Source of the DNA: an uncultured Elusimicrobia bacterium
GTDB taxonomy: Bacteria; Elusimicrobiota; Elusimicrobia; UBA1565; UBA9628
NCBI GenBank assembly: GCA_964653765.1
Contig: CAZZGQ010000001.1
Span: 5,456 to 69,455 of the forward strand
Length of the DNA stretch: 64,000 bases
Direction of reading: 5' to 3'
In this document: positions 8,855 through 34,053 of the stretch, piece after piece
Layout of the letters: every line of letters starts with the position of its first letter
Numbering within the stretch: the first letter of the stretch is position 1
The notes under the pieces: generated by a model
The model's database searches: none
The model's input: the letters and a program-made list of their open reading frames with translations, nothing else
Told to the model about the DNA's origin: nothing
Translations under genes and position numbers: made by a program

Positions 8855-9580
8855 ATGCATCCACTCCAGATTGCCGTGCTCGCGGGCGGCGCGCTGCTGG
8901 CGTCGACCTTGGCGGCCGTCACGGGGTTTGGCGGCGCTGCCGTGCTGCTTCCCCTGCTCGTGTGGGTCTTCGGATTGCGCGAGGCCGTCCCCATCTTGAC
9001 CGTTGCCCAGCTGATCGGGAATGCAAGCCGAGTCTGGTTCAACCGGAAGCTCATCGACTATCGCGTCGTCGGTTGGTTCGCTCTCGGCGGCGTGCCGCTG
9101 GCGCTGGCCGGCGGCTTCTTCTTCGCGCGCGCGCCACTCGCGGCGCTCACTAGGGTGCTCGGAGTTTTCCTGCTCGTGATCGTCCTCTTGCGGCATTGGA
9201 AGCGTCTAGCGTGGCCGAGGCCGTCGCTGCGTCAGTTCGCGCTCATCGGAGCCTGCTCGAGCTTCCTGTCGGCCCTCCTGGGCAGCGTCGGCCCGCTGAT
9301 GGCGCCTTTCTTCCTGGCGTATGGCCTGCTCAAGGGAGCGTATATCGGCACGGAGGCCCTCGCCACCGTGGTGATGCACGTCTTTAAGCTGATCGCTTAT
9401 CGGCGGTCGGATCTCTTGGAATGGCATAACATCCTCATCGGGCTTCTTCTTGGCCCAATCATGGTCTTCGGCTCCTTCTGCGGCAAGAAGATCGTCGACG
9501 CCCTGCCGGAGGAGGCTTTTGTCCTCATCATCGACATCACGCTCGCGGCGGCCGGCCTCCTCTTTCTCGTCCGCGGCTGA
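8855..9580 (+). CDS. TSUP (TauE/SafE) family membrane transporter
   Basis: 241 aa, ~8 TM, with Gly-rich repeats (GFGGAAVLLPLL / GSVGPLMAPFFL). Confidence 0.75.
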   Translation: MHPLQIAVLAGGALLASTLAAVTGFGGAAVLLPLLVWVFGLREAVPILTVAQLIGNASRVWFNRKLIDYRVVGWFALGGVPLALAGGFFFARAPLAALTRVLGVFLLVIVLLRHWKRLAWPRPSLRQFALIGACSSFLSALLGSVGPLMAPFFLAYGLLKGAYIGTEALATVVMHVFKLIAYRRSDLLEWHNILIGLLLGPIMVFGSFCGKKIVDALPEEAFVLIIDITLAAAGLLFLVRG

Positions 9581-9590
9581 GTTGACCGGC

Positions 9591-10157
9591 TCATTGTACA
9601 GCGCAGAGCAGGCGCGCGAGGAAGCCAATTCCGACGACGGCGAAGACGATCGCTGCCGCCCGGTGAAGGGCGTGCATTGGAAGCCGGGATTTCGAGTAAT
9701 GCCCGATCCATGACGCAAGGCCGGCGATGGACCAAAACGCCAGAGTTGCGGGAACCGCGACCGTCCCGGCGCCGTATTTCGCCGCGAGCGCGGCCGTCGC
9801 CAATTGGCTGGGGTCGCCCCATTGGGTCAAAAAGATCATCCCGAAGGCTGTTGCGAAGCCCGAACCTTTTCTAATCGGACGCTCGGTTCCGTCTGCCTGG
9901 CGCCAGGCCCAGACGGCGAGAGCGAGAAACAGCGTGCCGACGGCGCCGTGAACGAGCTTCGCAGGAAGCAGCGCTATCAGCTTTCCCAGGGCCAGCGCGA
10001 TGCCGACGTGAATGGTGAACGCGACGCCTGCCCCAAGGAACACCGCTCCCGGGTGAGAACCGGCGGCCAGCACGATGGTTGCCAGCGTCGTCTTTCCCGC
10101 CAGCTCGGCCAGGAAGATCAGCGAAAAGGAAGAAGCGGCCGCGCGATAGTCGATCAT
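9591..10157 (-). CDS. UPF0016/GDT1-like family membrane protein (putative cation transporter)
   Basis: 188 aa, 6 TM, with two degenerate E-x-G-(D)-K/P-(T/S) repeats (ELAGKTT, QWGDPSQ). Confidence 0.45.
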   Translation of the reverse strand: MIDYRAAASSFSLIFLAELAGKTTLATIVLAAGSHPGAVFLGAGVAFTIHVGIALALGKLIALLPAKLVHGAVGTLFLALAVWAWRQADGTERPIRKGSGFATAFGMIFLTQWGDPSQLATAALAAKYGAGTVAVPATLAFWSIAGLASWIGHYSKSRLPMHALHRAAAIVFAVVGIGFLARLLCAVQ

Positions 10158-10909: not shown

Positions 10910-11430
10910 TCAATGCGCCGGTGGAGGCGCTTGGACCAAGGCATAAGTCCGCGCTCCAAGCACGGTACCCGCGATGGGTGCTGCCCAATACAGCCAATGA
11001 TGCGCGAAGTTCAGCGACACGAGCGCGGGCGCGAACGAGCGTGCCGGATTCATCGAAGCGCCCGAGATCGGTCCACCGAACGCCGCTTCGAGCGCGATGA
11101 GACCGCCGATCGCGATCCCCGCCATCGCACCCTCCGCCCGGTCATCGGTGGCGACGCCCATGATCGTGAGCATGAGCATGAAACTCATGATGAGCTCGAG
11201 CAGAAAGCTCTGGCCTTCGGAACCGGCGGGCAGGGTCACGCCGAGGTTGTTCGGTTGTCCCGCGAAGAGCCACCGCAGAACGAGCGACGCGGCGACGGCG
11301 CCGGCAAGCTGCGCGGCGATGTACGGCAGAAGCTCCGCCGTCTTGTGCCGTCCGGCCGAATAGAACCTATGGTCACGGCTGGATTCATATGCGCCCGGGA
11401 GGCAACGCCGCGCATCTGCTCGTTTGGCAC
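10910..11430 (-). pseudogene. Aquaporin/aquaglyceroporin (MIP family) pseudogene: 5'-truncated and frameshifted
   Basis: First NPA (AHMNPAVTIG) is in one frame (11236-11430). The rest (FYSAGRHKTAELLPYIAAQLAGAV...GVATDDR...GASMNPARSFAPAL, second NPA) is in another frame. The two are joined by an apparent 1-bp loss in a T-run near 11365. No TM1-TM2 coding sequence exists upstream. Confidence 0.6.
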
Positions 11431-11652: not shown

Positions 11653-12015
11653 ATGAGAAGGAGACAGGTCATCTGGACGCTCGTGCTCGCCATGCTGGCC
11701 TCGCCCTTGCACTGCCTCAGCGAGGAGATGGCGAAGCCGCCCGTTCTCCAGCCGACTGCCTCCTTGTCGATGCCGCGCCAGAATGCCCCGGTCGTGGGCA
11801 TCAGGATGTGCTGCCACCCCACCGAAGGCGTCGTTCCCGTTGACGCGTCTATTCAGGCTCTGAAACGCGCTGCCACGGCGCTGACGCCGGTGGCGCCGCC
11901 GGTCACGCGCGGGTTCCTTATCGAACGCCGCGTCATGAGCCGCTCGCCTGGGCCGCCGGGCGATAGACTGCTAGCTGCCCACATTACTCCTCTGGTCACT
12001 CCCCTCCTCATTTAA
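11653..12015 (+). CDS. Small secreted Cys/His-containing hypothetical protein
   Basis: Signal peptide. CC-H motif (IRMCCHPTEG). Upstream of the second RND gene. Weak evidence. Confidence 0.3.
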   Translation: MRRRQVIWTLVLAMLASPLHCLSEEMAKPPVLQPTASLSMPRQNAPVVGIRMCCHPTEGVVPVDASIQALKRAATALTPVAPPVTRGFLIERRVMSRSPGPPGDRLLAAHITPLVTPLLI

Positions 12016-12109: not shown

Positions 12110-15100
12110 ATGCGCCTAGCGCGAATCGCCGTTCACAACCCATACTGGGTCGTCGTCTTGACGCTCATGACAGCGCTCTTGGGCGGCGTCTGCCTGAGCC
12201 TGCTGCCCAAAGACATACTGCCCACCTTCAAGACCTCGGCCGTTCAGGTTGTCACCTTCTACCCCGGCATGCCGGCCGAGGTCATGGAGAAGGACATCAC
12301 GACAAGGCTCGAGCGCTGGACGGGGCAGTCCAACGGCATCGCCCGCCAAGAATCCAAGTCCATGATCGGCGTCTCGATCGTCAAGGACTTCTTCCGTCCC
12401 GACATCGATCCCAATACGGCGATGTCGCAGGTGACGTCTTTCGCCATGTCGGACCTGTTCTACCTGCCGCCGGGGACCATCCCGCCGATGGTGATGCCGT
12501 TCGATCCGACGGCGGCCGTGCCCTTGGCGCTCATCACGGTGCAAAACCCGCGGATGGACGAATCCAAGCTCTACGACGTGGCCTACTTCGACCTGCGCAA
12601 CATGCTCCAAGGCATCCCCGGCGTCATCGCTCCGGCGGTCTATGGAGGGAAGCTGCGCCGCATCCTGGCCTACGTCGACCCCGCGAAGATGGCCGCGCGC
12701 GACCTCTCGAGCCTGGACGTCGTGCAAGCCCTGCGCCAGTCCAACGTGATGATCCCGACCGGCGACGTCAAGCTCGGCGACAAGGACGTGCAGGTCGTGA
12801 CGGACGCTCTCGTGCCCGACGTCGGGCGCATGAACGACTTCCCGATCCGGGCGCGCGAGGGCGTCGAGGTCAGGATGAAGGACGTGGCGACGGTCGAGGA
12901 CTCGCACCAGATCCAGACCAACATCGTCCGCATCAACGGCAAGCGTCAGGTCTACATCCCGATCTACCGCCAGCCCGGCGCCAACACGATCGCTGTCGTC
13001 GACGGGATCAAGAAGGCGCTCTCGCTGATCCTGGAGCGCCTGCCCCAGGGAATGAAGTTGGACGTCGCCGCCGACCAGTCCGTCTTCGTGAGGCGCGCCG
13101 TCGAGAGCCTGTCGCATGAGCTGGTCCTGGGCGGGCTGCTCGCGGCCTTGATGGTGCTTCTCTTCCTCCGTAGCCTGCGCTCTTCCCTGGCGATCTTCCT
13201 CGCGATGCCGCTCTCGATCTTCGCCTGCTTCATCGGGCTCTACGCCACCGGGGACACGCTCAACGCGATGACCCTAGGCGGACTGGCCCTGGCCGTGGGC
13301 CGACTCATCGACGACTCGATCGTGGTGCTCGAGAACATCACGCGCCACATCGAGTCGGGCTCGACGGCGCGCGAGGCGGCGTTGAGCGCCGCCGATGAGG
13401 TCGCCATGCCCGTGTTGGCCGCGACCATCACGACGCTGATCGTCTTTCTGCCGGTCTTCTTCCTGACGGGGATGGGCAAGTTTCTCTTCGCGCCGCTGGC
13501 CAGGGCGGTGGCCTTCTCGATCGGCGCCTCCTACGTCGTGGCGATGACCGTCGTGCCGGCGTTCTGCGACAAGTTCCTCAAGGCGCGCCCGCCCCGGCGG
13601 ACGGCCAGCTCCGATCGAAGGGTCCTTATCGAGCGAGCTATCCCTGCGGTCGAGCGTTGGCTCGAGCCGGCGGTCCGCTTCGTCAGGAGCTCGTTCGGCG
13701 TTCCCCTCCCCGCGCCGCTGGCCTCGCCCGAGCTCTGCGCGGCCGTCGACAGCGTCGCCATGCTGGCGCCCGAGCCGCGTGAATGGCCCCTCTCGTACGC
13801 GGGCTTTGTCCGCGGCTATCGCCGCCTGCTCGCGCGCTCGCTGCCCCGGCGCGGCTGGATCATCGCCGGGGCGTTTGGCGGGCTGCTGCTGTCGCTTCTC
13901 TTATACCCGCGGATCGGCAAGGAGCTTTTCCCGGCCGCCGACGTCGGCCACCTGACGATCCACGCGCGCATGCCGACGGGGACTCGCATCGAGCTGAGCG
14001 AGGCCAAAGCGGCCCAGATCGAACGCGGTCTCAGGGACGTCCTGGCTTCGGACGACCTCAAGCTCGTGATCGCCAACATCGGCGTCCTCAACGACTGGCC
14101 GGCCGCGTACACTCCCAATTCCGGGCCCGGCGACATGTTCTTCGAGGTGGAGGTGGGCGAAGGCCGGCGCCTTTCTACGCAGAGCTGCGCCGACGCGCTT
14201 CGAGCCTACTTTCGCAAGAGTTTCCCGGACGTCGAGATCAGCATCGAGACGGGCGGCATGCTCACAGCGGCTCTGAACATGGGGCTGGCCGCGCCGATCG
14301 ATATCCAGGTGGAAGGCCAGGACCTCAAGGCCGCCCACGAGATCGCGCGCTCGATCGTCGATCGCGTCAAGGGCGTGCCGGGGGCCGTCGACGTGGGCAT
14401 CCAGGAGAGCGTCGACTACCCGCAGATCGCTATCGAGCTTAACCGCCCGAAGATCGCGCGCCTGGGACTCACCGTCGATGAGGTGGTCAAGAGCGTCGTG
14501 ACGGCGCTCAATTCGAGCGTCAACTTCGCCCCCGCATTCTGGATCGACCCCAAGAACGGCAACCATTACTTCTTGGGTGCCCAATACCGCGAAGATGAGA
14601 TCCGCAGCCTCGACGCGCTCAAGGCGATCGGCGTCACTGGCAGCAACCAGGAGCGAACAGTGAGACTGGGCGAGCTCGCGGACTTTCGGACTACGGTCGC
14701 CCCTTCCGAAATACGCCACCTCGACATCAAGCGCGTGATCGACGTCTTCGCGAACGTGTCCGGGCGCGACGTGGGCGGCGTCGCCTCCGATATCGCGCGG
14801 CGGCTGCCAAAGCCCCAGGAGCTGCCGCAAGGCTATCGCATCAGGATGCGCGGCGAAGTCTCGTCAATGAGAGAGGCTTTCGCCAACCTGGGCTTCGGGC
14901 TGCTGCTGGCCGTCGCTCTCGTCTATCTCGTGCTGGCGGGCCAGTTCCGCTCCTTCTTGGATCCGCTTCTGATCCTGTTCGCCGTGCCGCTGGGCCTGAC
15001 GGGCGTCTTGGCGATGCTTTGGGCCACCCGGACGACTTTCAACATCCAGTCGTTCATGGGCGTCATCTTCATGGTCGGCATCGCCGTCTCGAACGGCATC

Positions 15101-16654
15101 CTGCTTGTGGAGTTCGCCAACCGCGAGCTGGCGCGAGGGAAGAGCCCGGATGAGGCTGTCATCGAGGCGGCGGCCGTCCGCCTGCGCCCGATCCTGATGA
15201 CCTCGCTGGCTACGCTGTTGGGCCTTCTGCCCATGGCCGTCGGTGGCGGCCGCGGCGCGCAGGCGAACGCGCCGCTGGCGCGCGCCGTGATCGGCGGCAT
15301 GATGGCCTCCACCGTCCTCGTGCTGCTGCTCGTGCCGCTGCTCTATAACGGGCTGCAAAGGCTCAAGGGGCCGAGGGGCCGGTCCGCGGCCACCGCAGCA
15401 TTGTTGCTCATCCTATTCGCAGCGCCCAAGGCCTCGGCCGAAACCGCCTCGTGGGCGCTGAGCTACGACGACGCCTTGGCCATGGCGCTCAAGGACAACC
15501 CTGGCCTGCTGGCCGCCGCGGCCAGGGTGGAGCAGGCCCGGGCGGCGGTCGTGGCGGCGCAAGCCTCCTACTACCCGCGGCTTGCCGCCTCGGCGATCGA
15601 CTCGTCAGGCATGGGCGGCTCCTCCTCGGCGCTGGGGATCACTGGTCTGGTCAATTCTCCCTACCGCAAGGGCGAGGCGGCCGGCCTGGACGCGGCGTGG
15701 AACGTCTACGACTTCGGACGCACCGCCTACGGGGCCAAGGCGGCGCGGGAGCAGCTCGAGGCCGCGCGGGCCGACGTCGAGGGCTTGAAGCTCGACGTCC
15801 GCGCCAAGGCGGCCGAGGCTTACTGCCGTTGCGCCGAGCTTCAAGGCCTTGGCGCGCTCTTCGAGCGCCAGGGAAGCGACCAGGCGAAGATCGTGGGCGA
15901 GCTGGAGGTCTACGTGCGCTCGGGTCTGCGCACCCCGGTCGAGCTCGGGCTCATGAAGGCCACGCTGGAGGGCATCGGAGCGCGCCGGCAGGAGGCGCGC
16001 GCGCTCGAGGCCGTGGCGCGCGAGGACCTCGCTGCTGTCATGGGCCATAGCGGGTCCGTTTCCTTCTCCTGCGTCTCGGATACCGCCGCGCCCGTGGTCC
16101 CGGCCATCGACGAGTCCTCCGCCCTGTCGCGCCGGCCCGAGCTCGCCGCCGCCCGGCTGCGGGCCGCCGCCGCGCAGGCGCGCTGGCGGGCGGCGGGCCG
16201 GGAACGCTGGCCCGTGTTGTCGGCCGTGGCGAGCGCCGGCGTTCTCTCCGAGACGAGCCTCGTGCCCAAGCAGGAGTGGAGCGCGGGCGTCGGCCTGCGG
16301 CTGCCGCTCTTCGAGGGCTTGCGCTTGGCGTCCGAGGAGAAGGCGGCGGCGCAAGCCGCGCGAGAATCCGAGTATCGCGTCGCGGTGGAGCAGCAAGCCG
16401 CGACGCGCGACGTCAGAGCAGCGGCGGCCTGGGCCGCCGGCGCGCGCGAGAAGCGGCTGCGGTTGGACGAGGAGGAGCGCACCGTCGAGCAAGCCTACCT
16501 GCTCGCCCGCCGGCGCTACTTGACCAAGGCCGGCAGCTTCGCCGACCTGCGCGACGCTCAAGGGATGTATTTTCGGATCGCCGAGGAGGATTTGGGGGCG
16601 GGCGAGGCCGAGCGGCTCGCTGTCGAGCAGCTCAAGATAGCGGCCGGAATGTAA
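12110..16654 (+). CDS. RND efflux permease (AcrB/HAE-type, ~1085 aa) continuing in frame into a TolC/OMF-like outer-membrane-factor domain (~430 aa)
   Basis: 12-TM RND body. After ...LLYNGLQRLKGPRGRS the frame continues without a stop into a signal-peptide-like segment (AALLLILFAAPKASA/ETAS) and OEP-family repeats. No MFP gene is adjacent. Confidence 0.7.
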   Translation: MRLARIAVHNPYWVVVLTLMTALLGGVCLSLLPKDILPTFKTSAVQVVTFYPGMPAEVMEKDITTRLERWTGQSNGIARQESKSMIGVSIVKDFFRPDIDPNTAMSQVTSFAMSDLFYLPPGTIPPMVMPFDPTAAVPLALITVQNPRMDESKLYDVAYFDLRNMLQGIPGVIAPAVYGGKLRRILAYVDPAKMAARDLSSLDVVQALRQSNVMIPTGDVKLGDKDVQVVTDALVPDVGRMNDFPIRAREGVEVRMKDVATVEDSHQIQTNIVRINGKRQVYIPIYRQPGANTIAVVDGIKKALSLILERLPQGMKLDVAADQSVFVRRAVESLSHELVLGGLLAALMVLLFLRSLRSSLAIFLAMPLSIFACFIGLYATGDTLNAMTLGGLALAVGRLIDDSIVVLENITRHIESGSTAREAALSAADEVAMPVLAATITTLIVFLPVFFLTGMGKFLFAPLARAVAFSIGASYVVAMTVVPAFCDKFLKARPPRRTASSDRRVLIERAIPAVERWLEPAVRFVRSSFGVPLPAPLASPELCAAVDSVAMLAPEPREWPLSYAGFVRGYRRLLARSLPRRGWIIAGAFGGLLLSLLLYPRIGKELFPAADVGHLTIHARMPTGTRIELSEAKAAQIERGLRDVLASDDLKLVIANIGVLNDWPAAYTPNSGPGDMFFEVEVGEGRRLSTQSCADALRAYFRKSFPDVEISIETGGMLTAALNMGLAAPIDIQVEGQDLKAAHEIARSIVDRVKGVPGAVDVGIQESVDYPQIAIELNRPKIARLGLTVDEVVKSVVTALNSSVNFAPAFWIDPKNGNHYFLGAQYREDEIRSLDALKAIGVTGSNQERTVRLGELADFRTTVAPSEIRHLDIKRVIDVFANVSGRDVGGVASDIARRLPKPQELPQGYRIRMRGEVSSMREAFANLGFGLLLAVALVYLVLAGQFRSFLDPLLILFAVPLGLTGVLAMLWATRTTFNIQSFMGVIFMVGIAVSNGILLVEFANRELARGKSPDEAVIEAAAVRLRPILMTSLATLLGLLPMAVGGGRGAQANAPLARAVIGGMMASTVLVLLLVPLLYNGLQRLKGPRGRSAATAALLLILFAAPKASAETASWALSYDDALAMALKDNPGLLAAAARVEQARAAVVAAQASYYPRLAASAIDSSGMGGSSSALGITGLVNSPYRKGEAAGLDAAWNVYDFGRTAYGAKAAREQLEAARADVEGLKLDVRAKAAEAYCRCAELQGLGALFERQGSDQAKIVGELEVYVRSGLRTPVELGLMKATLEGIGARRQEARALEAVAREDLAAVMGHSGSVSFSCVSDTAAPVVPAIDESSALSRRPELAAARLRAAAAQARWRAAGRERWPVLSAVASAGVLSETSLVPKQEWSAGVGLRLPLFEGLRLASEEKAAAQAARESEYRVAVEQQAATRDVRAAAAWAAGAREKRLRLDEEERTVEQAYLLARRRYLTKAGSFADLRDAQGMYFRIAEEDLGAGEAERLAVEQLKIAAGM

Positions 16655-16670
16655 ATCAAGGAGGAATATC

Positions 16671-17132
16671 ATGAGAAAGATGTCAGCGACAGGGTTGATG
16701 CTCGTCTGCGTGGTGGTTGGCGCGAGTTGTGCGGCGGCCCAGGGCGCGCAGGAGAAGATCGAAGCCAAGGCAGTGGGTTCGGATAGCTTTACCGGCGGCG
16801 ACACAAGCGATCTCGGCCCGTACCTGACGGTGAACGCGGCCGGCGATCGCGTCGGCGTTCAATTCCGCAAATGCGAGGAGTGGGCCGAGGAAGAGGCGAC
16901 GCCTCAATGCACGCCCGGGCAGCTCGTCTACATCTTCCCGCAGCTTCGCGTCGACCCGCAAAGCAAGCAGGTCATGCTGGGCGATACTCCCGTGGCTCAC
17001 CTTGCCCTGGGCGGCGGGGTCCGGATGTCCAGTGACTACCGCTTGGACTACGCGGTCGTCTCCAAGACCGAGGACACCGGCTTCGAGCGGCGCCCATCCA
17101 AGCACGTTGAGGTGTTCTTGGAGCATCGATAG
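16671..17132 (+). CDS. Secreted hypothetical protein
   Basis: Signal peptide MRKMSATGLMLVCVVVGASCAAAQG. RBS AAGGAGGA upstream. Confidence 0.4.
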   Translation: MRKMSATGLMLVCVVVGASCAAAQGAQEKIEAKAVGSDSFTGGDTSDLGPYLTVNAAGDRVGVQFRKCEEWAEEEATPQCTPGQLVYIFPQLRVDPQSKQVMLGDTPVAHLALGGGVRMSSDYRLDYAVVSKTEDTGFERRPSKHVEVFLEHR

Positions 17133-18187: not shown

Positions 18188-18688
18188 ATGTTTCGACAAT
18201 CGCCTGAGGCATTCGAGGAACTGCTGCGCGAGCATCTGGATTTCCTGTATCGCTGCGCCCTGCGGTTGACGCGCCAGCGACTGGAAGCCGAGGATCTCGT
18301 GCAGGAGACGGCTGCCCGCGCCTTGCGCCACTTCGACCGTTATCGGCCGGGGACCAATGCCCGGGCTTGGCTGCTGACGGTCATGAGAAACATCTTCATC
18401 AACGGATACCGCCGGAAAGCCAAGGAGCGCGAGCTCATGCGGTCCATCGAGGCGGACGCGCGCGTGGTGAGAAAGACGACCGAGCTGCCGGAGCGCGTCG
18501 AAAGGACGCTCGACGCCCTTCCGGAGGAGCAGCGTCTGGCCTTGAGCCTCTTTTACGCGGAGGGCTTCTCCTACGCGGAGATCGCGCGCGCCATGGAGTG
18601 CCCCATCGGCACGGTGATGTCGCGACTCCATGCCGGGAGAAAGAAGCTGCTGGAACAGTCGCGGGATCTCAAGAACGATGAACTGTAA
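18188..18688 (+). CDS. ECF-subfamily RNA polymerase sigma-70 factor
   Basis: Region 2 (DLVQETAARALRHFDRY) and region 4 (EGFSYAEIARAMECPIGTVMSRLHAGRKKL). Confidence 0.85.
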   Translation: MFRQSPEAFEELLREHLDFLYRCALRLTRQRLEAEDLVQETAARALRHFDRYRPGTNARAWLLTVMRNIFINGYRRKAKERELMRSIEADARVVRKTTELPERVERTLDALPEEQRLALSLFYAEGFSYAEIARAMECPIGTVMSRLHAGRKKLLEQSRDLKNDEL

Positions 18689-19430
18689 AGACGCCGAGGT
18701 GCTGTTGTCGGGCCTCATCGACAGCGAGCTGGCCGCCGAGGACAGGCGGGCGATCGAAGAGCACCTGTCCATTTGCGACGCCTGCCGGCAGGCCCTAAAC
18801 GATGTGCGGGCGGCCGACGCGCTGCTCAAAGAGCATTTCCCTCGCGAGCAGCCTTCGCATTACCTGAGAGAGAAGGTCCTCGAAAGGGCGCGGCTGGCCA
18901 AGCTGGAGCTGCTGCTCGAGAAACGGCCGTCGGGGTGGCGGGCGGTCGTGGCCGCGGCCCTCTTGGCCGCTGTCGTCCTCGGGGTCTGGCGCTGGCCCCG
19001 GCCGGCCGCCGACGACATGACGAGGGCCGCCATCCTCAACCACATCAACTCTTTGTCGGGAAGGCTTCCGGCAGAGATTCAAAACAGCCATCCGCGGAAA
19101 GTGGCCGCCTGGTTCTCGGGCAAGCTCCCGTTTCGTATCGACGTCCCCGACATTTCGCCTGAAGGTTATCACCTTGTCGGCGGCCGCCTCTGCCAACTGA
19201 AGGGGCGTGACGTGGCTTACATCGTCTACAAACGCGGCGACGAAGTCGTCTCCCTCTTCGTGGCCGACTTCTCGGGCATCAAGGCTCCCGCTGGCCACGA
19301 GGCCATGCTGGCCTCGCTCAAGGGTTACAACGCCGCCTGCTGCCGGAAGGGCGACATCGGCTACATCTTCGTCTCGGGCGTCGACCGGGGCAGGCTCGAA
19401 GCCATCGCCAAGAGGGTCGGCAGCGCTTGA
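18678..19430 (+). CDS. Anti-sigma factor (zf-HC2 type, single TM, periplasmic C-terminal domain)
   Basis: ATG overlaps the sigma gene stop (ATGAACTGTAA). N-terminus HLSICDACRQ is the zf-HC2 motif. TM helix RAVVAAALLAAVVLGVW. Confidence 0.7.
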   Translation: MNCKDAEVLLSGLIDSELAAEDRRAIEEHLSICDACRQALNDVRAADALLKEHFPREQPSHYLREKVLERARLAKLELLLEKRPSGWRAVVAAALLAAVVLGVWRWPRPAADDMTRAAILNHINSLSGRLPAEIQNSHPRKVAAWFSGKLPFRIDVPDISPEGYHLVGGRLCQLKGRDVAYIVYKRGDEVVSLFVADFSGIKAPAGHEAMLASLKGYNAACCRKGDIGYIFVSGVDRGRLEAIAKRVGSA

Positions 19431-19443
19431 GAAGCAACTCTTA

Positions 19444-20316
19444 ATGAGCAGGGTGCTTTCGTGGCTCATCGCGGGGCGCTCGCAGAAGGCCAGCCACGCT
19501 CTTTTGGCGCCCGCCGCGTTATGGCTGCTTCTCTTTCTGGTGCTGCCGGTGGCGTTTTTGCTCACCATGTCGGCGGCGCAGAGGGGCGCCTACGGCGCGG
19601 TAATCTGGCACTTCACGACAGCCAACTTCGCCCGCGCTCTCCAGCCCAAGTATCTGCCCATCCTGGTCCGGACGATCGGCTACGCCTCGGCGACGACAGC
19701 GCTCTGTCTTACGCTAGGCTTTCCAGTCGCCTACTACCTGAGCTTCCACGCCGGCGACAAGCGCGAGTTGCTGCTGGCGGCATTGATGATCCCGTTTTGG
19801 ACCTCGGCACTGGTCGCGTTGTATTCGTGGATGATCATCCTCGGCCGGGAGGGGCTGCTCAACTCGATGCTCATGCGCGCGGGAGTCCTTCGCTCGCCTT
19901 TGCATATCCTCAACACGCCGTTCTCCGTGCTGCTGGGCATGGTCTACTTCTATATCCCTTTCATGGTGTTGCCGCTCTTCGGCTCGCTTGAGAAAATCCC
20001 GCGCCAATATCTCGAGGCGAGCTACGATCTCGGAGCGGGTCAAACGCGCACCTTCCTGAAGGTGACGCTGCCGCTTTCGTTGCCGGGCGTGTTCGCCGGC
20101 TGCATCCTCACGTTCGTGCCCTGCATGGGAGACTTCTTGACCGCCGATTTTCTCGGCGGACCGAGGACCTACCTGCTCGGGAACCTGATACAAAACCAGT
20201 TCTTGATGGCGCAGGACTGGCCGTTCGGCGCCGCGCTGACCTCGCTGCTTCTTTTTACCCTGGTCACCGGGCTCTATCTGTACCAGCGCGTCGAGAGGCG
20301 GGAGGAGCTCCTATGA
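19444..20316 (+). CDS. ABC transporter permease (PotB/BPD_transp_1 family), orphan
   Basis: 6 TM. EAA-like loop ([20 protein letters not shown]). No ATPase or SBP gene adjacent. Confidence 0.7.
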
Positions 20317-22508
20317 AAGCTGTCCTGGCGGTTTCGGTCTTCCTCGTCGCGGCTTTCGGTCAAGCCGGCGAGACGGGAAAGCCCAACCACCTCATCCACG
20401 AGAAGAGCCCCTACCTGCTGCAGCACGCCTACAACCCGGTGGACTGGTATCCCTGGGGTGACGAAGCCTTCGCGAAGGCCCGGCGCGAGAACAAGCCGAT
20501 CTTCCTGTCCATCGGCTACGCCACCTGCCATTGGTGCCACGTCATGGAGCGCGAGAGCTACTCCGACCCCAAGATCGCCGCCATCATGAACAAGTATTTC
20601 GTGTCGGTGAAGGTCGACCGCGAGGAGCGGCCGGACGTCGACAACCTTTACATGACGTTGGCCCAGGCCGCCGGATGGGGCGGCGGCTGGCCGCTCAACC
20701 TTTGGCTCACCCCCAGCCTCAAGCCCTTTTACGGCGGAACGTACTTTCCGCCCGAGAGCCGCTGGGGCCGGCCGGGTCTAGCCGAGACCGCCGAGCATAT
20801 AGGGCAGCTCTGGAAGACGCGCGGCGCCGAGATCGTGGCGTCGGGCGACGACCTCGTCGAGAAGGTCTCCGGCTACATGGCCGTCCAAGGACGCAGCGGC
20901 CCGCTCGACGCCGCCGCATTGGACAACGGCTTTAGGTCGCTCGAGAAAAACTTCGACCCGTCGCGGGGCGGCTTCGGCGGCGCGCCCAAGTTCCCGATGC
21001 CGATCCAATATAACTTCCTGCTGCGCTACTACGCCCGCACGGGCAACAAGAAGGCTCTCGACATGACCGCGCGCACGCTGCGGCAAATGGCGGCTGGCGG
21101 CCTCTACGATCAGGTCGGCGGTGGCTTTCACCGCTACTCCACCGACGACCATTGGCACATCCCGCACTTCGAGAAGATGCTCTACGACAACGCGCAGTTG
21201 GCGGTCAACTATCTGGAGGCCTATCAGCTCACCAAGGACCCGGACTTCGCGCGCGTGGCGCGCGAGACGCTCGACTACGTGCTGCGCGACATGACGCACC
21301 CGGACGGCGGCTTCTTCTCGGCGGAGGACGCCGACAGCCTCCGTCCCGGCGCCGAGGAGAAGGGCGAGGGCGCCTTCTACGTCTGGGAGAAGCCGGAGAT
21401 CCTCAAGCTCGCCGGAGCCGAGGCCGGCGAGATCTTCAGCTACCGCTACGGCGTCAAGGAGCACGGCAACGCCGAGTCCGATCCCCAAGGCGAGTTCCGC
21501 GAGAAGAACATCCTCTACGTCGCCCATTCCATCCCCGAGACGGCCAAGAGGTTCCACCGGACGCCGGCGGAGATTGAAAGTGTGTTAAGGGAGACCAAAA
21601 GCACGCTGTTCGAGGCGCGCGCCCGGCGTCCGCGCCCGCAGCGCGACGACAAGGTCCTGGCGGCCTGGAACGGCCTGATGATCTCCGCTCTGGCCAAGGG
21701 CAGCCAGGTTCTGGATGAGGCGCGGTACCGGCAGGCCGCGGAGAAGGCGGCGCGCTTTGTCCGCGAGCGGCTCTACGACGCCCAGAGCCGCCGGCTCTAC
21801 CGGCGCTGGCGCGACGGAGAGCGCAAGGTGCCGGGCAACGCTGATGACTACGCCTTCCTCGCGCAGGGGCTCATCGACCTCTACGAAGCTTCGTTCGATC
21901 CGCAATGGCTCCAATGGGCCCTCGAATTGACCGAGACGCAGGACCAGCTCTTCTACGACGCCAAGGACGGGGGCTTCTACTCCACGACTCAGGGCCAGGA
22001 CAAGAACCTGTTGGTCCGCAGCAAACAGGATTCGGACAACGTCGAGCCTTCCGCCAACTCAGTGGCCGCGCTGAACCTGCTCCGTTTGGCGCAGTTCACT
22101 GATCGCAAGGAGCTGCGCGCCATGGCCGAGAAGACGCTGACGCTCTTCGGCAAGCAGATGAAGGAGCAGCCCCAATCGCTCTTGCAGATGCTGGTCGCCT
22201 TGGATTTCGACCTCGCCAAGCCCCGGCAGATCGTGATCGCGGGCGATCCGCAGGCAGCCGACACGCGGAGGATGCTGCGGCTCGTCCAATCGCGCTTCAT
22301 CCCGGTCAAGATCTTGATGCTAGCCGACGGCGGCAAGGACCAGGCGGCGCTGACGCGGTGGCTGCCGTTCATGAATGGCGTCTCGCGCCTCAAGGGCAAG
22401 GCGACCGCCTACGTCTGCGTGGACTACGCTTGTAATCTGCCCACCAGCGATCCGGGCACGCTGGACAAGATTTTGGAGTCGAAGCCGCCTGTAACAAAAT
22501 CCCGCTAA
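20313..22508 (+). CDS. Thioredoxin-domain protein of the DUF255/YyaL (SSP411-like) family, secreted
   Basis: Signal peptide. [15 protein letters not shown] thioredoxin-like motif. Long alpha/alpha toroid C-terminal region (N-acyl-glucosamine-epimerase-like). Confidence 0.8.
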
Positions 22509-27923: not shown

Positions 27924-29039
27924 CTAGAACCTCCTCAGCGCGGCGAAAGACGCGTACGCGAAGGCGGCGGCGACGGGCAGCGTCACGACCCATGCCAGCG
28001 CCATGTCGCGGATCGTCTTCCAGCGGAGGCTTCCGCCGCCCTCCGAAAGGCCGATCCCGACGATCGCTCCGGTGGAGACATGCGTCGTCGAGACGGGCAC
28101 CCCGAAGCGCGAGGCGACGGCGACAAGAAACGAGGTGACGAGATTGGCCGCGAAGCCGTCCTCCGGCTCGATGCGCGTGACCTTGTTGGCGAGGGTCTCG
28201 GTGACGCGCAGCCCACCGAGGAAGCTTCCCAGGCCCATAGCAGCCGCCACGAGGACGTAAAACCTCAGTCCCCCGTATCCTCCGGCCGCGGCGACGGCGA
28301 CTCCGAGGGCCAGGATCTTCGGCGTGTCGTTCAGGCCGCGCGCGAAGCTCGTCAGGCCCGAGGTCAGCCAGTGCATGCCGTCGATCAGGCGGATGCCGGA
28401 GACGACGCCGGCCGACGGCCGGCAAGCTTCGACGCGGTCGACGACGAGTCCCGGTTGGGCGTCATCCATAGCCACCGCGGCCGCGCCCGGCGCGCTCGTC
28501 AGCGAGAGCTTGAGCGCCGGCCGCACTTGCGCGCAGACGCAGTAGCCTTGGCAGACCGACAGCGCGCGGCGCATGCCGCGGTAGACGACGAGCGTCAGGA
28601 GGAGCGCCATGACGGGGCTGGCCAACAAGGGAAGCGCGAAGGTCTTGCCGAGCGCGGCCCACTTGAGCCCTCCTGCGCCCGCCGCGTAGAGGCCGGCCCC
28701 GAAAAGGGCCCCGGTCAGGGCATGCGTGGTCGAGACCGGAAGCCCCGTGGCGCTTGCGAAGGCGATCCACAGGAACGCCCCGATCGCCACGGCGATCAGG
28801 AACAGCGGGTCTTGCGTCGGCTGCACGAGCAGGCCCTTGCCGCTGAAGGCGGCCACGAGGCCCTGCGACGCGAAGGCCGCGGCGACGGCGCCCGCCACGG
28901 TCCAGAACGTCCCCCAGGCGACGGCCGCCCGAATGCGCGTAACCCCGCTGCCCACGAGAGTGGCGATTCCCTTGGAAACGTCGTTCGAGCCGTTGGCGAA
29001 GGCCAGGCCCAGCGTCAGCGCGACGAGTATCATGGTCAT
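27924..29039 (-). CDS. Inorganic phosphate transporter, PiT (PHO4) family
   Basis: ANGSNDVSKGIATLVGSG and a second GANDVANAIG-like repeat. 371 aa, ~10 TM. Confidence 0.8.
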   Translation of the reverse strand: MTMILVALTLGLAFANGSNDVSKGIATLVGSGVTRIRAAVAWGTFWTVAGAVAAAFASQGLVAAFSGKGLLVQPTQDPLFLIAVAIGAFLWIAFASATGLPVSTTHALTGALFGAGLYAAGAGGLKWAALGKTFALPLLASPVMALLLTLVVYRGMRRALSVCQGYCVCAQVRPALKLSLTSAPGAAAVAMDDAQPGLVVDRVEACRPSAGVVSGIRLIDGMHWLTSGLTSFARGLNDTPKILALGVAVAAAGGYGGLRFYVLVAAAMGLGSFLGGLRVTETLANKVTRIEPEDGFAANLVTSFLVAVASRFGVPVSTTHVSTGAIVGIGLSEGGGSLRWKTIRDMALAWVVTLPVAAAFAYASFAALRRF

Positions 29040-29099
29040 GCCCTATGTGCCTCAAGGCGCTCAAACGTTACAGCGGATTCGTTCCAGAGCGCGGGTTGC

Positions 29100-30509
29100 T
29101 TACTCCACGCAGCAGCTCATGTGGCGCACGTCGCGCTTAAAGGCTTGCGCGGCGATCTTGACGACCTCGGAGTAGGTCGGAAAAACGTGGACCAGGTCGA
29201 TGAGGTCGGAGGCCTTGAGGCCGTGCTGGATGGCGAGGGCCGGCTCATGGATGAGCTCGGCGGCGTTGGGCGAGATGACGTGAAAGCCCAGGACCTTGCC
29301 GTCCTTGGGATGGATCACCATCTTCGCGTAGCCGCGCAGCTCGTTGGTGATAGCGGCCTTGGACACGTACTTGAGCTCGACGCCGCGGCAGTCGCAAGCG
29401 CCGAAGCGCTCGATCGCCTGGGCCTCCGTGAGTCCGACCACGGCGATCTGCGGATCGGTGAAGACGGCGGCCGGCACGGCCTCGTAGTTGATCGTGAGCT
29501 TCTGGCCGCCCAACGCGTTCTTGACGGCGTTGGCGCCCTCGCGCGCGCCGACGGTCTCGAGCCACGGCGGCCCGGCCACGTCTCCGGCCGCGTAGACGTT
29601 GCCCGCGCGGGTGCGCAGGGTCTCGTCGACCTCGACGAAGCCGTTCTTGTCCGCCTTGAGGCCCACGGAGGACAGGTTCAGGTCCTCGGAGTTTCCTTTG
29701 ACCCCGACGGCGACAAACAGCTTCTCGGCGCGGAACTCGCGCGGCTTGCCGTCCACCTCCCCGGCCAAGACGACCTCCCGCCCTTCCTGACGGACGGCCT
29801 TGGGGGTCATCTTGGCGCACAGCTCGATGCCGTCTTCCTTAAAGACGTCCTCGATCACGCGCGAGACCTCTGGCTCGGTGAGCGAAAACGGCCGGTCGAG
29901 AGCCTCGACGCAGGCGATCTTCGTGCCGAAGCGGGCGAACATCTGGGCGACCTCGAGGCCGGTCGGCCCGGCGCCGATAACGATCATGCTCTTCGGCATT
30001 TCCCTCAAATCGAAGGCCGCGATGTTGTCGAGCACCGAGCCGGGCGCCAACGTCTCCAGCCCGGGCAGGAGCAACGGCTTGTTCGAGGAACCCGTGGCGA
30101 GGAGCACGTATTCGGCCTCGAAGAGCCGGTTGTCCGCCCGGATCCGCCCGGGGCCGTCCAGGCGCGCTCTCTTCTCGACGAGCTCTACGTGCTTGAAGCC
30201 GCGCATGATCTTCTCGTATTTGGCCTCGCGGCTAGCGTGGACGATCTCTTCCTTTTCGGCGATAGCCTCGGGAAACGAGAACTCCGGTGCCCGGCACTTG
30301 ATGGCCCGGAAGCGCGGCTTGAGGACGCGCCGGCGGTCAAAGCCCGCCTCCAGCAGGACTTTGCTCGGCACGCAGCCCACGTTGACGCAGGTCCCGCCCA
30401 GCGGCAGGCCTTTGTTGAAGACGACGGTCTTCGAGCCAAGCTCGTCGGCCGCCGCGGCGGCCGCGAACGCCGCGCCCCCTCCCCCGATGATGGCCAAGTC
30501 GTAGCTCAA
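29100..30509 (-). CDS. merA: Mercuric reductase MerA (core enzyme without N-terminal HMA domain)
   Basis: TTG start 5 nt after GAGGAGGGA. FAD site LGGTCVNVGCVPSK. C-terminal Cys pair ...RHMSCCVE. Start overlaps the stop of the upstream small mer transport gene. Confidence 0.8.
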   Translation of the reverse strand: MSYDLAIIGGGGAAFAAAAAADELGSKTVVFNKGLPLGGTCVNVGCVPSKVLLEAGFDRRRVLKPRFRAIKCRAPEFSFPEAIAEKEEIVHASREAKYEKIMRGFKHVELVEKRARLDGPGRIRADNRLFEAEYVLLATGSSNKPLLLPGLETLAPGSVLDNIAAFDLREMPKSMIVIGAGPTGLEVAQMFARFGTKIACVEALDRPFSLTEPEVSRVIEDVFKEDGIELCAKMTPKAVRQEGREVVLAGEVDGKPREFRAEKLFVAVGVKGNSEDLNLSSVGLKADKNGFVEVDETLRTRAGNVYAAGDVAGPPWLETVGAREGANAVKNALGGQKLTINYEAVPAAVFTDPQIAVVGLTEAQAIERFGACDCRGVELKYVSKAAITNELRGYAKMVIHPKDGKVLGFHVISPNAAELIHEPALAIQHGLKASDLIDLVHVFPTYSEVVKIAAQAFKRDVRHMSCCVE

Positions 30510-30709
30510 GGCTCCCTCCTCGTCCAGAGCCAAAACGCCAGGATCACGAGCCCGAACAGAACGGCGCCGATCCACCAGCGTCCGCTGGCCAATCCCGCCG
30601 CTCCTCCCGCGAGCAGCGCGGGAAAGAAGGCGCAGCAGATGACGCCCACAATGGCGATCACACCCGCCGCGATCGCGGCGAAAACGCCCAGCTTGCGCCC
30701 ATCGGCCAT
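30506..30709 (-). CDS. Small two-TM mercury-transport-like protein (MerF/MerT-like CC motif)
   Basis: 67 aa. TM1 IVGVICCAFFPALL (vicinal Cys + Pro) then a second TM. RBS CAGGAGGA. Divergent from merR. Confidence 0.5.
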   Translation of the reverse strand: MADGRKLGVFAAIAAGVIAIVGVICCAFFPALLAGGAAGLASGRWWIGAVLFGLVILAFWLWTRREP

Positions 30710-30809
30710 GAGTCCTCCTGTAGCGCCAGTTTATAGCCTGTACCACGGTCCAAGGTCGGTAGCGGACGAGTCTCCCCTCCGTCACGTCCTCGCGACGGGC
30801 GCAAAGGTC

Positions 30810-30842
30810 TTGACTCTATACCTGGGTATAGGCTGTAACATG
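30810..30842 (+). promoter_or_regulatory. MerR-type promoter: TTGACT - 19-bp spacer containing dyad CTATACC-tg-GGTATAG - GTAACA, ending at the merR start
   Basis: Seen in sequence. A 19-bp spacer with a centred dyad is the hallmark of MerR-family-regulated promoters. Confidence 0.55.
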
Positions 30843-31259
30843 AGGATGAACATGAACGAGAGTGTGACGATCGGAAGCGTGGCAAAGGCGGCGGGCGTGA
30901 ACATACAAACGGTGCGCTATTACGAGCGCCGGCGCCTGCTCGAGCCGGCGAGGCGCCTTGATTCCGGCTATCGCCTCTATTCCGGAGAGGCGGTGCGAAA
31001 GCTGCGCTTCATCAAGAACGCGCAGGCGCTGGGATTTTCTCTCGAGGAGATCCGCTCGCTGCTGCGGCTGCGCAGCGGCGGCCCGGCGTCGTGCGAGCGG
31101 GTCCGGCGCAGGGCGGCCAAGCATGCGGCGGACGTGCGCGAACGCATCGCGCGTCTGCGCGGCATGGAGCGGGTGCTCCGGCAGTTGATTCGGACCTGCC
31201 AGACGCGCGGCCGGACGGACGAGTGCCCGATCCTGAAGAGTCTCGAGGGAGAGAAATGA
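30840..31259 (+). CDS. merR: MerR-family Hg(II)-responsive transcriptional regulator
   Basis: TIGSVAKAAGVNIQTVRYYERRRLLEP HTH. Cys residues at MerR-like positions (CERV, CQTRGRTDECP). Three possible ATGs at 30840, 30846 and 30852. Confidence 0.85.
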   Translation: MRMNMNESVTIGSVAKAAGVNIQTVRYYERRRLLEPARRLDSGYRLYSGEAVRKLRFIKNAQALGFSLEEIRSLLRLRSGGPASCERVRRRAAKHAADVRERIARLRGMERVLRQLIRTCQTRGRTDECPILKSLEGEK

Positions 31260-33700: not shown

Positions 33701-33976
33701 ATGGCGAAGCGAACGGTGGAAGTGTTCACGGCCGGCTGTCCCGTGTGTGAGGACGCCGTCAAAAAGGTCAACTCGCTCGCGTGCCCGGACTGCGAGGTCA
33801 AGATATACGACCTCAACCGGGGTTGCGCGACCAACGAGTGCCGCGAGAGGGGCGAGAAGTACGGCGTCAAGCGCCTTCCGGCGGTGGCGGTCGACGGCAA
33901 GCTGCTCGACTGCTGCAGCCAGGGTGGCGTGGACGTCAAGAAGCTGCAGGCGGCCGGCGTGGGCAGGAGGGCGTGA
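33701..33976 (+). CDS. Small thioredoxin/glutaredoxin-like protein (CPVC active site, additional CC pair)
   Basis: [18 protein letters not shown]...[16 protein letters not shown], Thioredoxin_3-like. Confidence 0.5.
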
Positions 33977-34053
33977 AGCGCGGCCCGGCGAAAGCCGGGC
34001 CGCCGAATTGTGACGAGGCCGGCACGCGTTCGCCGTCGCCGCGCTCTGGGGAA

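Follow-up and report, generated by a model that had tools for sequence, protein, structure and literature searches.

How can a single reading frame supply two proteins that belong in two different membranes? The question is raised by one gene in a 64,000-nucleotide stretch of DNA from an uncultured Elusimicrobia bacterium (assembly GCA_964653765.1, contig CAZZGQ010000001.1, positions 5,456 to 69,455; hereafter the window), where an inner-membrane permease of the resistance-nodulation-division (RND) type runs without a stop codon into a TolC-like outer-membrane factor (OMF), and where no gene for a membrane fusion protein (MFP), the usual adaptor between two such partners, lies beside it. The adaptor is considered indispensable for linking an RND pump to a TolC-like channel, and direct contact between pump and channel has long been debated. 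The answer favoured here, with a probability of roughly 0.7, is that the fused open reading frame (ORF) encodes a conserved polyprotein precursor of pump and OMF, which signal peptidase I would cut between residues A1110 and E1111. The fusion itself is genuine and has been retained over a long evolutionary distance, and the lack of an adaptor gene at the locus is equally real.

A pump and a channel in one conserved frame

The two halves of the ORF (coordinates in Table 1) are recognized by Pfam in one and the same frame. ACR_tran (PF00873) comes first, scoring 711.9 bits against a cut-off of 28 (E 1.6e-213) in two stretches, of which the reported one covers aa 4-498 and profile positions 2-498 of 1021. 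It is followed by two stretches of OEP (PF02321; 109.6 bits against a cut-off of 22, E 2.1e-31), beginning at residue 1119. Neither a stop codon nor any hint of a shift in frame is seen in the DNA between positions 15200 and 15560. Given that both halves score far above their Pfam cut-offs and that dozens of independent sequences show the same architecture, the ORF is clearly not a chance open frame. An earlier reading of the locus from its letters alone (the sequence-only reading) had described a true in-frame RND-OMF fusion, and this description stands; its estimate of about 430 aa for the OMF segment was slightly too high, the predicted mature OMF counting 404 aa.

A database search returned 22 full-length fused homologues of 1453-1547 aa that carry both Pfam domains and are 41-66% identical to the window protein, several of them from Omnitrophica metagenome-assembled genomes. 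An exhaustive profile search with an alignment of junction plus OMF added further fused cluster representatives, including P0220 (36% identity) and P0315 (27%). When 185,579 species representatives of GTDB were scanned, the OMF patterns matched in three Omnitrophota genomes and one Elusimicrobia genome, and at the two of these four loci that were examined the OMF lies inside a single ORF of about 1470 aa. A metagenome scan gave the same picture: of the nine loci at which the OMF exceeded 450 bits against the fusion profile, eight are fused and the ninth is cut at a contig edge where it cannot be judged, and all 71 of the more distant OMF loci are unfused. The closest relative of the window protein, P0001, is likewise a fusion, the RND core being 78% identical.

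These results bear directly on the suggestion, also made in the sequence-only reading, that the junction might reflect a sequencing error or a mutated stop codon. Such a pseudo-fusion, whether an error of sequencing or assembly or a very recent mutation between two ordinary genes, gains some plausibility from distant relatives in which the halves are two overlapping genes that one small frame change could fuse. The same architecture is nevertheless found in about 30 independent sequences at 27-66% identity, from at least two phyla and from different samples and assemblers; its closest relative shares it, and the signal-peptide properties of the junction, described below, are kept throughout. 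Because the fusion is conserved across all of these, error and fresh stop loss were ruled out, and the chance that they account for the locus is practically nil. A stop codon between the halves, proposed as the telltale of two ordinary genes, does occur in relatives, as overlapping pairs, but only in distant ones (RNDs 47-51% identical to that of the window). The overlapping pairs thus explain the origin of the fusion and not its spuriousness.

The RND half has the marks of a working pump. Its hydropathy peaks are consistent with transmembrane (TM) helices TM1, TM2-6, TM7 and TM8-12, the cytoplasmic loop between TM6 and TM7 being 60 aa longer than in P0001. Across 23 fused sequences there is no variation in a set of charged and polar residues in TM4 (D401/E408), TM10 (N995/E1001) and TM11 (R1024/R1026), and the pump half therefore appears to be under selection. 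The second aspartate of TM4 (aa 401-402) is D in 12, N in seven and Y in four fused sequences, and D or Q in unfused sisters, while aa 994 in TM10, which we take to be the equivalent of Lys940 in AcrB, is S, L, A or R in the fusions. Variation at these two positions suggests that the proton relay of this clade differs from that of AcrB. The best NCBIfam model is the generic RND_permease_2, whose cut-off is not reached, and the same is true of the heavy-metal efflux (HME) RND model TIGR00914 of CusA and CzcA (420.5 bits against 701.45) and of the HAE1-type models NF033617, NF000282 and TIGR00915 (605.5, 440.5 and 372.7 bits against 1250, 1250 and 940). By cut-off, the RND half fits no curated NCBIfam subfamily.

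The OMF half can be assigned with confidence to a complete, predicted TolC fold. An AlphaFold 2 (AF2) model of aa 1111-1514, with a mean confidence (pLDDT) of 85.7, contains the canonical four strands (model residues 78-86, 109-121, 290-300 and 311-318) and the paired long helices (125-191 and 325-392, 67-68 residues each). Foldseek aligned it with CusC, OprN, SilC, VceC, OprM and TolC at TM-scores of 0.73-0.77 over about 405-415 columns.

As a separate matter, a cysteine at aa 1321 of the OMF (nt ~16070-16072; in an F-x-C motif before the second repeat, alignment column C242 of A1) is shared by all 17 of the 17 fusions aligned; another, in the CRCAE region at aa ~1242-1244, occurs in most of them. 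Conserved cysteines are unusual for OMFs, and these may relate to the thioredoxin-like neighbours described further below.

A predicted signal peptide behind the last pump helix

The last helix of the RND half ends in VPLLY1079, after which the junction reads NGLQRLKGPRGRSAATAALLLILFAAPKASA, followed directly by ETAS. Positively charged residues (R1084, K1086, R1089 and R1091) lie on what would be the cytoplasmic tail of the pump and form an n-region; a short hydrophobic h-region spans about A1093-A1105, with an in-frame pair of TTG codons at nt 15401-15406 (L1098-L1099); and P-K-A-S-A makes up a c-region, with the predicted signal peptidase I site between nt 15439 and 15440. This n-h-c layout recurs in all 23 full-length fusions. 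The net charge of the n-region ranges from +1 to +5 and the best 10-residue hydropathy of the h-region from 2.3 to 3.35; in the small-x-small cleavage motif, position -1 is Ala in 22 fusions and Ser in one and position -3 is A, G, T, S, I or L, while the residue behind the motif tends to be acidic or polar. Residue by residue, the segment shows little conservation across the fusions, and only the n-h-c properties are kept. Signal peptides evolve in just this manner, by keeping properties rather than residues. The profile search, moreover, placed the junction columns opposite the N-terminal signal peptides of stand-alone OMFs from the same subfamily. A lipobox cysteine after the junction signal is present in none of the 23 fusions (the window has KASA/ETAS), and the model for NodT-type lipoprotein OMFs, TIGR01845, is not reached (99 bits against 210). 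To judge from these features, the junction is a Sec-type signal peptide, which agrees with the resemblance remarked on in the sequence-only reading.

The C-terminus of an RND permease is cytoplasmic after TM12, as established for AcrB, and a hydrophobic segment that follows it with its N-terminus inside and its C-terminus outside (N-in/C-out) would therefore be correctly oriented to export whatever lies downstream. The first structured element of the OMF begins only some 5-10 residues behind the junction, and the h-region lacks the length of a stable TM helix; judging from the known dimensions of RND pumps and OMFs, a channel tethered in this way could not reach the outer membrane. That the OMF would need processing had already been argued from sequence, and the short h-region and linker point the same way.

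On the favoured reading, the 31-residue junction would insert N-in/C-out as a thirteenth helix behind the 12-TM, proton-driven pump and thread the 404-residue TolC-like protomer into the periplasm, where signal peptidase I would cut behind A-S-A. The pump would stay in the inner membrane with a short extra tail, and the freed OMF would trimerise and insert into the outer membrane. As pump and channel are both trimers, one gene would supply them in the required 1:1 ratio.

Similar processing is reportedly undergone by the cytochrome b/c1 polyprotein FbcH of Bradyrhizobium. A documented parallel is LtaS of Staphylococcus aureus, whose multi-TM domain leads into a signal-peptide-like segment and an exported domain, the latter being released when SpsB, a type I signal peptidase, cuts between the two (PMC12260438). 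Both LtaS and FbcH are unrelated to the RND-OMF fusion. We know of no case where processing of this sort frees a beta-barrel channel of the outer membrane, or where an RND pump makes up the membrane part.

Two other fates of the fused product have to be weighed against cleavage. The junction might act as a permanent thirteenth TM anchor and leave an OMF-like domain tethered to the pump. Such a covalent tether would guarantee that the partners meet, and cleavage at the junction is, after all, a deduced step. The h-region, however, has about 9-15 uncharged residues, like that of cleaved signals and unlike a stable TM helix; Ala is kept at -1 in nearly every fusion despite an otherwise variable segment; and the linker would be far too short for an OMF whose outer-membrane beta-strands are conserved. 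An uncleaved fusion is therefore improbable. The OMF might instead be made separately by internal initiation within the junction, for which the sequence-only reading had singled out the TTG pair, and Met, Val or Leu codons are indeed found in the junctions of several homologues. No Shine-Dalgarno-like sequence precedes any candidate start in nine loci, though, and in two of these (L001 and L004) the junction is entirely devoid of in-frame ATG, GTG and TTG codons. Starting at the window's TTG pair would give MLLILFAAPKASA, a signal peptide without a positive n-region, and the full-length product would remain in any case. With neither a Shine-Dalgarno sequence nor a conserved start codon among the nine loci, the internal start was dropped as very improbable. 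Where the sequence-only reading had left the choice between internal start and cleavage, the evidence thus favours cleavage.

Overlapping gene pairs and the missing adaptor gene

Stand-alone OMFs of the fused subfamily exist, and in the two cases that could be placed on contigs (P0203 and P0213) the OMF gene immediately follows one for an RND that is 47-51% identical to that of the window, with a 4-base GTGA/ATGA overlap of stop and start and without an MFP. The overlapping RND-OMF pairs at loci L015 and L016 share the OMF subfamily with the fusions (281-344 bits to the fusion profile), as well as the order of the genes and the lack of an MFP; they differ in consisting of two genes with a 4-base overlap, the OMF having its own N-terminal signal peptide. 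Such an overlapping pair is the likely ancestral arrangement of the fusion. In a translationally coupled pair with an ATGA/GTGA overlap, a small frame change could remove the stop codon and create the fusion, and a change at that position would let the RND tail run into the OMF's own signal peptide, exactly as observed.

The closest unfused RNDs, about 62% identical in the core, belong to three sister operons (L008, L009 and L010) that share accessory genes with the fused loci, namely those for an extracytoplasmic function (ECF) sigma factor and anti-sigma factor, Thioredox_DsbH and Porin_O_P. They differ in that an MFP gene stands between RND and OMF in all three, and their OMFs are not orthologues of the fused one, being only about 26% identical to it (E 0.007 to 6e-6). 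In a neighbour-joining tree of the RND core, the fused proteins form two pure clades, A (14 members, including the window) and B (nine), separated by a branch of 0.017; comparing fused OMFs between the clades gives E 1e-38 to 1e-47. The more distant P0315 has a quite different RND half, which suggests that the design also arose independently.

Two other ideas about the origin were discarded. Deletion of the MFP gene from an RND-MFP-OMF operon does not fit, since the sister OMFs are so dissimilar and the nearest stand-alone OMFs are found in overlapping pairs. The impression from a word-indexed search that the OMF subfamily occurs only in fused form was overturned by the exhaustive profile search. 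The top 'stand-alone' match, P0196, starts at an internal junction position and is probably a truncated gene call.

The absence of an adaptor gene, which the sequence-only reading had reported for the surroundings of the fusion, was confirmed well beyond the window. A hidden Markov model (HMM) was built from four MFPs, three from the sister operons and the Czc-type one of the window, and searched in all six-frame ORFs of the loci. An MFP-like ORF was found in 0 of 14 fused loci and 0 of 2 overlapping RND-OMF pairs, in 3 of 3 sister operons (whose MFPs are among the sequences from which the HMM was built), and in 37 of the 71 control OMF loci of the metagenome scan, or 29 of 38 when these are at least 10 kb long. 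By Fisher's exact test, the difference between fused and control loci has p = 1.7e-4 (0/14 vs 37/71); with the comparison restricted to loci of 10 kb or more, p = 2.4e-6 (0/12 vs 29/38). Within the 64-kb window the same search found no MFP besides the gene of the separate Czc-type operon, and Pfam scans of unannotated neighbours found none either, with which the precomputed Pfam lists agree. The loss of the local adaptor gene is real, and it is specific to this lineage, because the sister RND clade has retained the MFP between RND and OMF.

How the two released parts of the precursor would be connected is less clear. One way is an adaptor encoded in trans, which in this genome could be the Czc-type MFP, its gene lying 6.3 kb upstream of the fusion. 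The conserved columns of the RND half are nearly indistinguishable from those of its MFP-dependent sisters, and the helix-tip motifs of the OMF, SGL and KxG, are highly conserved; these presumably correspond to the VGL/VGT tips of TolC, which contact MFP hairpins in known pumps. The Czc-type MFP, however, already has partners in an HME-type RND and an OMF encoded in the same complete operon, an MFP as a rule serves one particular RND, and none of the 13 other fused loci has an MFP within reach, so that this explanation is held only tentatively, at something short of even odds. The other way is an adaptor-less, two-component conduit in which RND and OMF dock directly. The MFP counts for fused loci, overlapping pairs and controls speak in its favour, as does an OMF lineage distinct from that of the sister operons, and older cross-linking and in vitro work gave some support for a limited direct interface between AcrB and TolC (PMC4754349). 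In every RND-OMF pump solved so far, on the other hand, a hexamer of MFPs forms the bridge (PMC8277102). Nothing has been added to the periplasmic part of the fused RNDs, the helices of the OMF are no longer than usual, and the conservation of their tip motifs counts here against the idea; direct docking is therefore possible but unlikely. That the pump trimer and channel trimer would dock without any MFP, possibly with the help of the small Cys/His protein encoded upstream, we consider rather doubtful. This small protein was rejected as a general substitute for the adaptor, since it is absent from group-B fusions and overlapping pairs.

Several points weigh against the reading of the ORF as a processed precursor whose parts work together. 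The signal peptide was called by eye from rules, and the insertion of the signal, its cleavage and the assembly of the channel in the outer membrane are all inferred. To our knowledge, cleavage by signal peptidase I behind a 12-TM domain is undocumented for any RND protein. A single origin of the fusion in clades A and B, with a very short branch between them and a shared OMF lineage, is no more than likely. Finally, the RND half has no fused-specific insertion or deletion relative to the MFP-dependent sister clade, and one column alone discriminates the two (E855 against N), so that no compensation for the absent adaptor is visible in the pump; structural additions to the RND half that might replace the adaptor were accordingly rejected.

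Related systems and gene neighbourhood

Both components come from known families, and the system as a whole is not of a new kind. Like AcrAB-TolC and MexAB-OprM, the fusion combines an ACR_tran permease, with conserved charged residues in TM4, TM10 and TM11, and an OMF of the TolC/OprM fold; unlike them, it holds both parts in a single ORF with an internal signal peptide between them, has no adaptor gene in its operon, varies at the second TM4 aspartate and at the position equated with Lys940 of AcrB, and reaches no NCBIfam subfamily cut-off. The best structural matches of the fused OMF are CusC and SilC. The small exported Cys/His protein encoded beside the pump loosely recalls CusF, and metal-related neighbours (YHS, MerR/MerT/CopZ and a P-type ATPase) likewise bring CusCFBA to mind. 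The differences from CusCFBA and SilCFBA are that the RND lies below the TIGR00914 cut-off, that there is no CusB, and that the OMF is not a lipoprotein; the small protein has no detectable similarity to any Pfam family, and hence none to CusF.

A literature search for natural RND-OMF fusions or MFP-less RND-OMF operons found none, its coverage being incomplete and the result an absence of evidence only; nor does a major review speak of such a fusion. We could not find described the combination seen here, that is, a conserved single-gene precursor of RND, signal peptide and OMF, which would stem from an overlapping pair and systematically lacks an adaptor gene. If the proposed reading is true, an internal Sec signal behind a 12-TM domain would make this a rare bacterial polyprotein, one that supplies both membranes at a fixed stoichiometry. 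The clade of fusions and overlapping pairs, having dropped the adaptor gene that its sister clade kept, would then be a natural system in which to study direct docking, and an adaptor-less machine, should it exist, would run counter to the idea that no RND-OMF conduit can do without an MFP as its bridge. Together with the ECF sigma/anti-sigma pair and the porin, the small Cys/His protein and the DsbH-like thioredoxin would in that case define an uncharacterised envelope-stress or metal-related module of Omnitrophota and Elusimicrobiota. Annotation pipelines call the fusions simply 'efflux RND transporter permease subunit', and thereby miss the channel half.

Table 1. The fusion, its parts and the genes around it, with comparable genes at other loci (positions refer to the window, or to the locus named)
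Feature	Locus	Position	Strand	Remark
Fusion ORF, putative RND-signal peptide-OMF precursor	window	12110..16654	+	1514 aa plus stop
RND permease moiety, aa 1-1079	window	12110..15346	+	12 TM helices, two large periplasmic loops; Pfam ACR_tran, hydropathy
Junction, predicted signal peptide, aa 1080-1110	window	15347..15439	+	same n-h-c layout in 23/23 fusions
Predicted mature TolC-fold OMF, aa 1111-1514	window	15440..16651	+	404 aa; Pfam OEP x2, AF2, Foldseek
Small Cys/His protein gene	window	11653..12015	+	120 aa; N-terminal hydrophobic segment, PLHC, RMCCHP, Pro-rich, C-terminal PLLI
Small Cys/His gene copy	L001	9581-9925
Small Cys/His gene copy	L003	9510-9881
Small Cys/His gene copy	L005	9525-9893
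Small Cys/His gene copy	L006	9518-9886
Small Cys/His gene copy	L011	~6416-6826
Small Cys/His gene copy	L012	172-540
Small Cys/His gene copy	L014	4161-4514
Small Cys/His gene copy	L020	6313-6681
Small Cys/His gene copy	L022	1416-1784
Small Cys/His gene copy	L024	6301-6678
Secreted protein gene, no family	window	16671..17132	+	153 aa; 17 nt downstream of fusion
ECF sigma factor	window	18188..18688	+	candidate regulator pair with anti-sigma
zf-HC2 anti-sigma factor	window	18630..19430	+
ECF sigma/anti-sigma pair	L007	459-1860		beside related RND gene
ECF sigma/anti-sigma pair	L008	4107-5440		beside related RND gene
ECF sigma/anti-sigma pair	L010	3162-4480		beside related RND gene
Thioredox_DsbH (DUF255) protein	window	20313..22508	+	731 aa
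DsbH homologue	L001	14368-16566		after/near fusion; start overlaps fusion's stop codon
DsbH homologue	L004	14410-16851		after/near fusion; start overlaps fusion's stop codon
DsbH homologue	L005	16442-18607		after/near fusion
DsbH homologue	L006	14929-17070		after/near fusion
DsbH homologue	L008	5518-7929		before unfused RND
Czc-type OMF-MFP-RND operon	window	3488-8837
OMF of Czc-type operon	window	3488-4801
MFP, sole one in window	window	4811..5767	+	within Czc-type operon
RND of Czc-type operon	window	5769-8837		meets TIGR00914 cut-off, 753.6 bits
TauE	window	8855-9580		after Czc-type operon
GDT1 cation/proton antiporter	window	9591-10157	-
MIP/aquaporin gene, split	window	10910-11430	-	10910-11239 matches MIP profile 128-222; preceding part 11236-11430 in other frame
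ORF with C-terminal MerR domain	window	28080-31259
P-type ATPase with YHS and HMBD	window	33781-36351
Small lipoprotein	L005	14641-15051		after fused OMF
Small lipoprotein	L012	5040-5501		after fused OMF
Small lipoprotein	L010	10116-10616		after OMF of RND-MFP-OMF operon
Porin_O_P	L003	8184-9425
Porin_O_P	L005	15124-16377
Porin_O_P	L010	10861-12216
Porin_O_P	L012	5419-6699
Unclassified 445-aa protein	L016	2944-4281		ends in Phe
Second RND-like region	L017	6439-9479		split in frames 6439-8082 and 7950-9479
MtrA + DUF4346 ORF	window	661-2142	-

In each of the 11 distinct group-A loci whose sequence extends upstream of the fusion, a small gene (114-123 aa) immediately precedes it; the product has an N-terminal hydrophobic segment (signal or TM), two conserved cysteines in a His-rich setting (PLHC/RMCCHP or WDYC/HHPC), a Pro-rich middle and a hydrophobic C-terminus (LLI/LRI). 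The gene was not found outside group-A loci, that is, at group-B fusions, unfused relatives or the other loci examined, and its product matches no Pfam or NCBIfam family. Further upstream in the window, the Czc-type operon, in the order OMF, MFP and RND, is followed by TauE and then, on the minus strand, by the genes for a GDT1 cation/proton antiporter, a helix-turn-helix protein and the split aquaporin.

Downstream come the gene for the 153-aa secreted protein, which is probably co-transcribed with the fusion, an AmiA-like gene, the ECF sigma/anti-sigma pair, a permease-like ORF and Thioredox_DsbH. The 153-aa protein showed no BLAST similarity to the products of small downstream genes at other loci. 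ECF sigma/anti-sigma pairs also stand beside related RND genes, and their recurrence by pump genes suggests envelope-stress regulation. DsbH homologues lie after or near the fusion at four further loci, in two of which the start overlaps the fusion's stop codon, and before an unfused RND at a fifth. Genes for metal homeostasis are plentiful in the window, where the Czc-type operon, TauE and GDT1 are joined by an ORF with a MerR domain and a P-type ATPase gene; a YHS-like protein is encoded directly after the fusion in L006, and MerR, MerT and CopZ genes lie near it in L005. This context points weakly to a metal or thiol-reactive substrate under ECF sigma, or envelope-stress, control.

A number of smaller observations concern the same neighbourhoods. 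The anti-sigma partners are of the zf-HC2 kind or unclassified TM proteins of ~260-280 aa. The DsbH-type neighbour, which recurs beside the RND clade whether fused or not, has a C-terminal part that resembles six-hairpin glycosidases. A small lipoprotein (136-166 aa, 25-44% mutual identity) is encoded after the OMF at two fused loci and one RND-MFP-OMF operon, and the window's 153-aa protein has no detectable relation to it. Porin_O_P genes lie by the pumps at four loci, and at L016 an unclassified protein ending in Phe occupies the position equivalent to that of the porin. In L017, a fused metagenome locus, the fusion is followed by a second RND-like region, split between frames and without an MFP-like ORF. 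The split aquaporin gene, one ORF of which matches just the C-terminal half of the MIP profile, is most likely a pseudogene with a frameshift, or else the product of a local error in the sequence. At the start of the window, one minus-strand ORF combines MtrA (tetrahydromethanopterin S-methyltransferase subunit A) with the pterin-binding DUF4346, an unexpected find in a bacterial-looking region of 65% GC.

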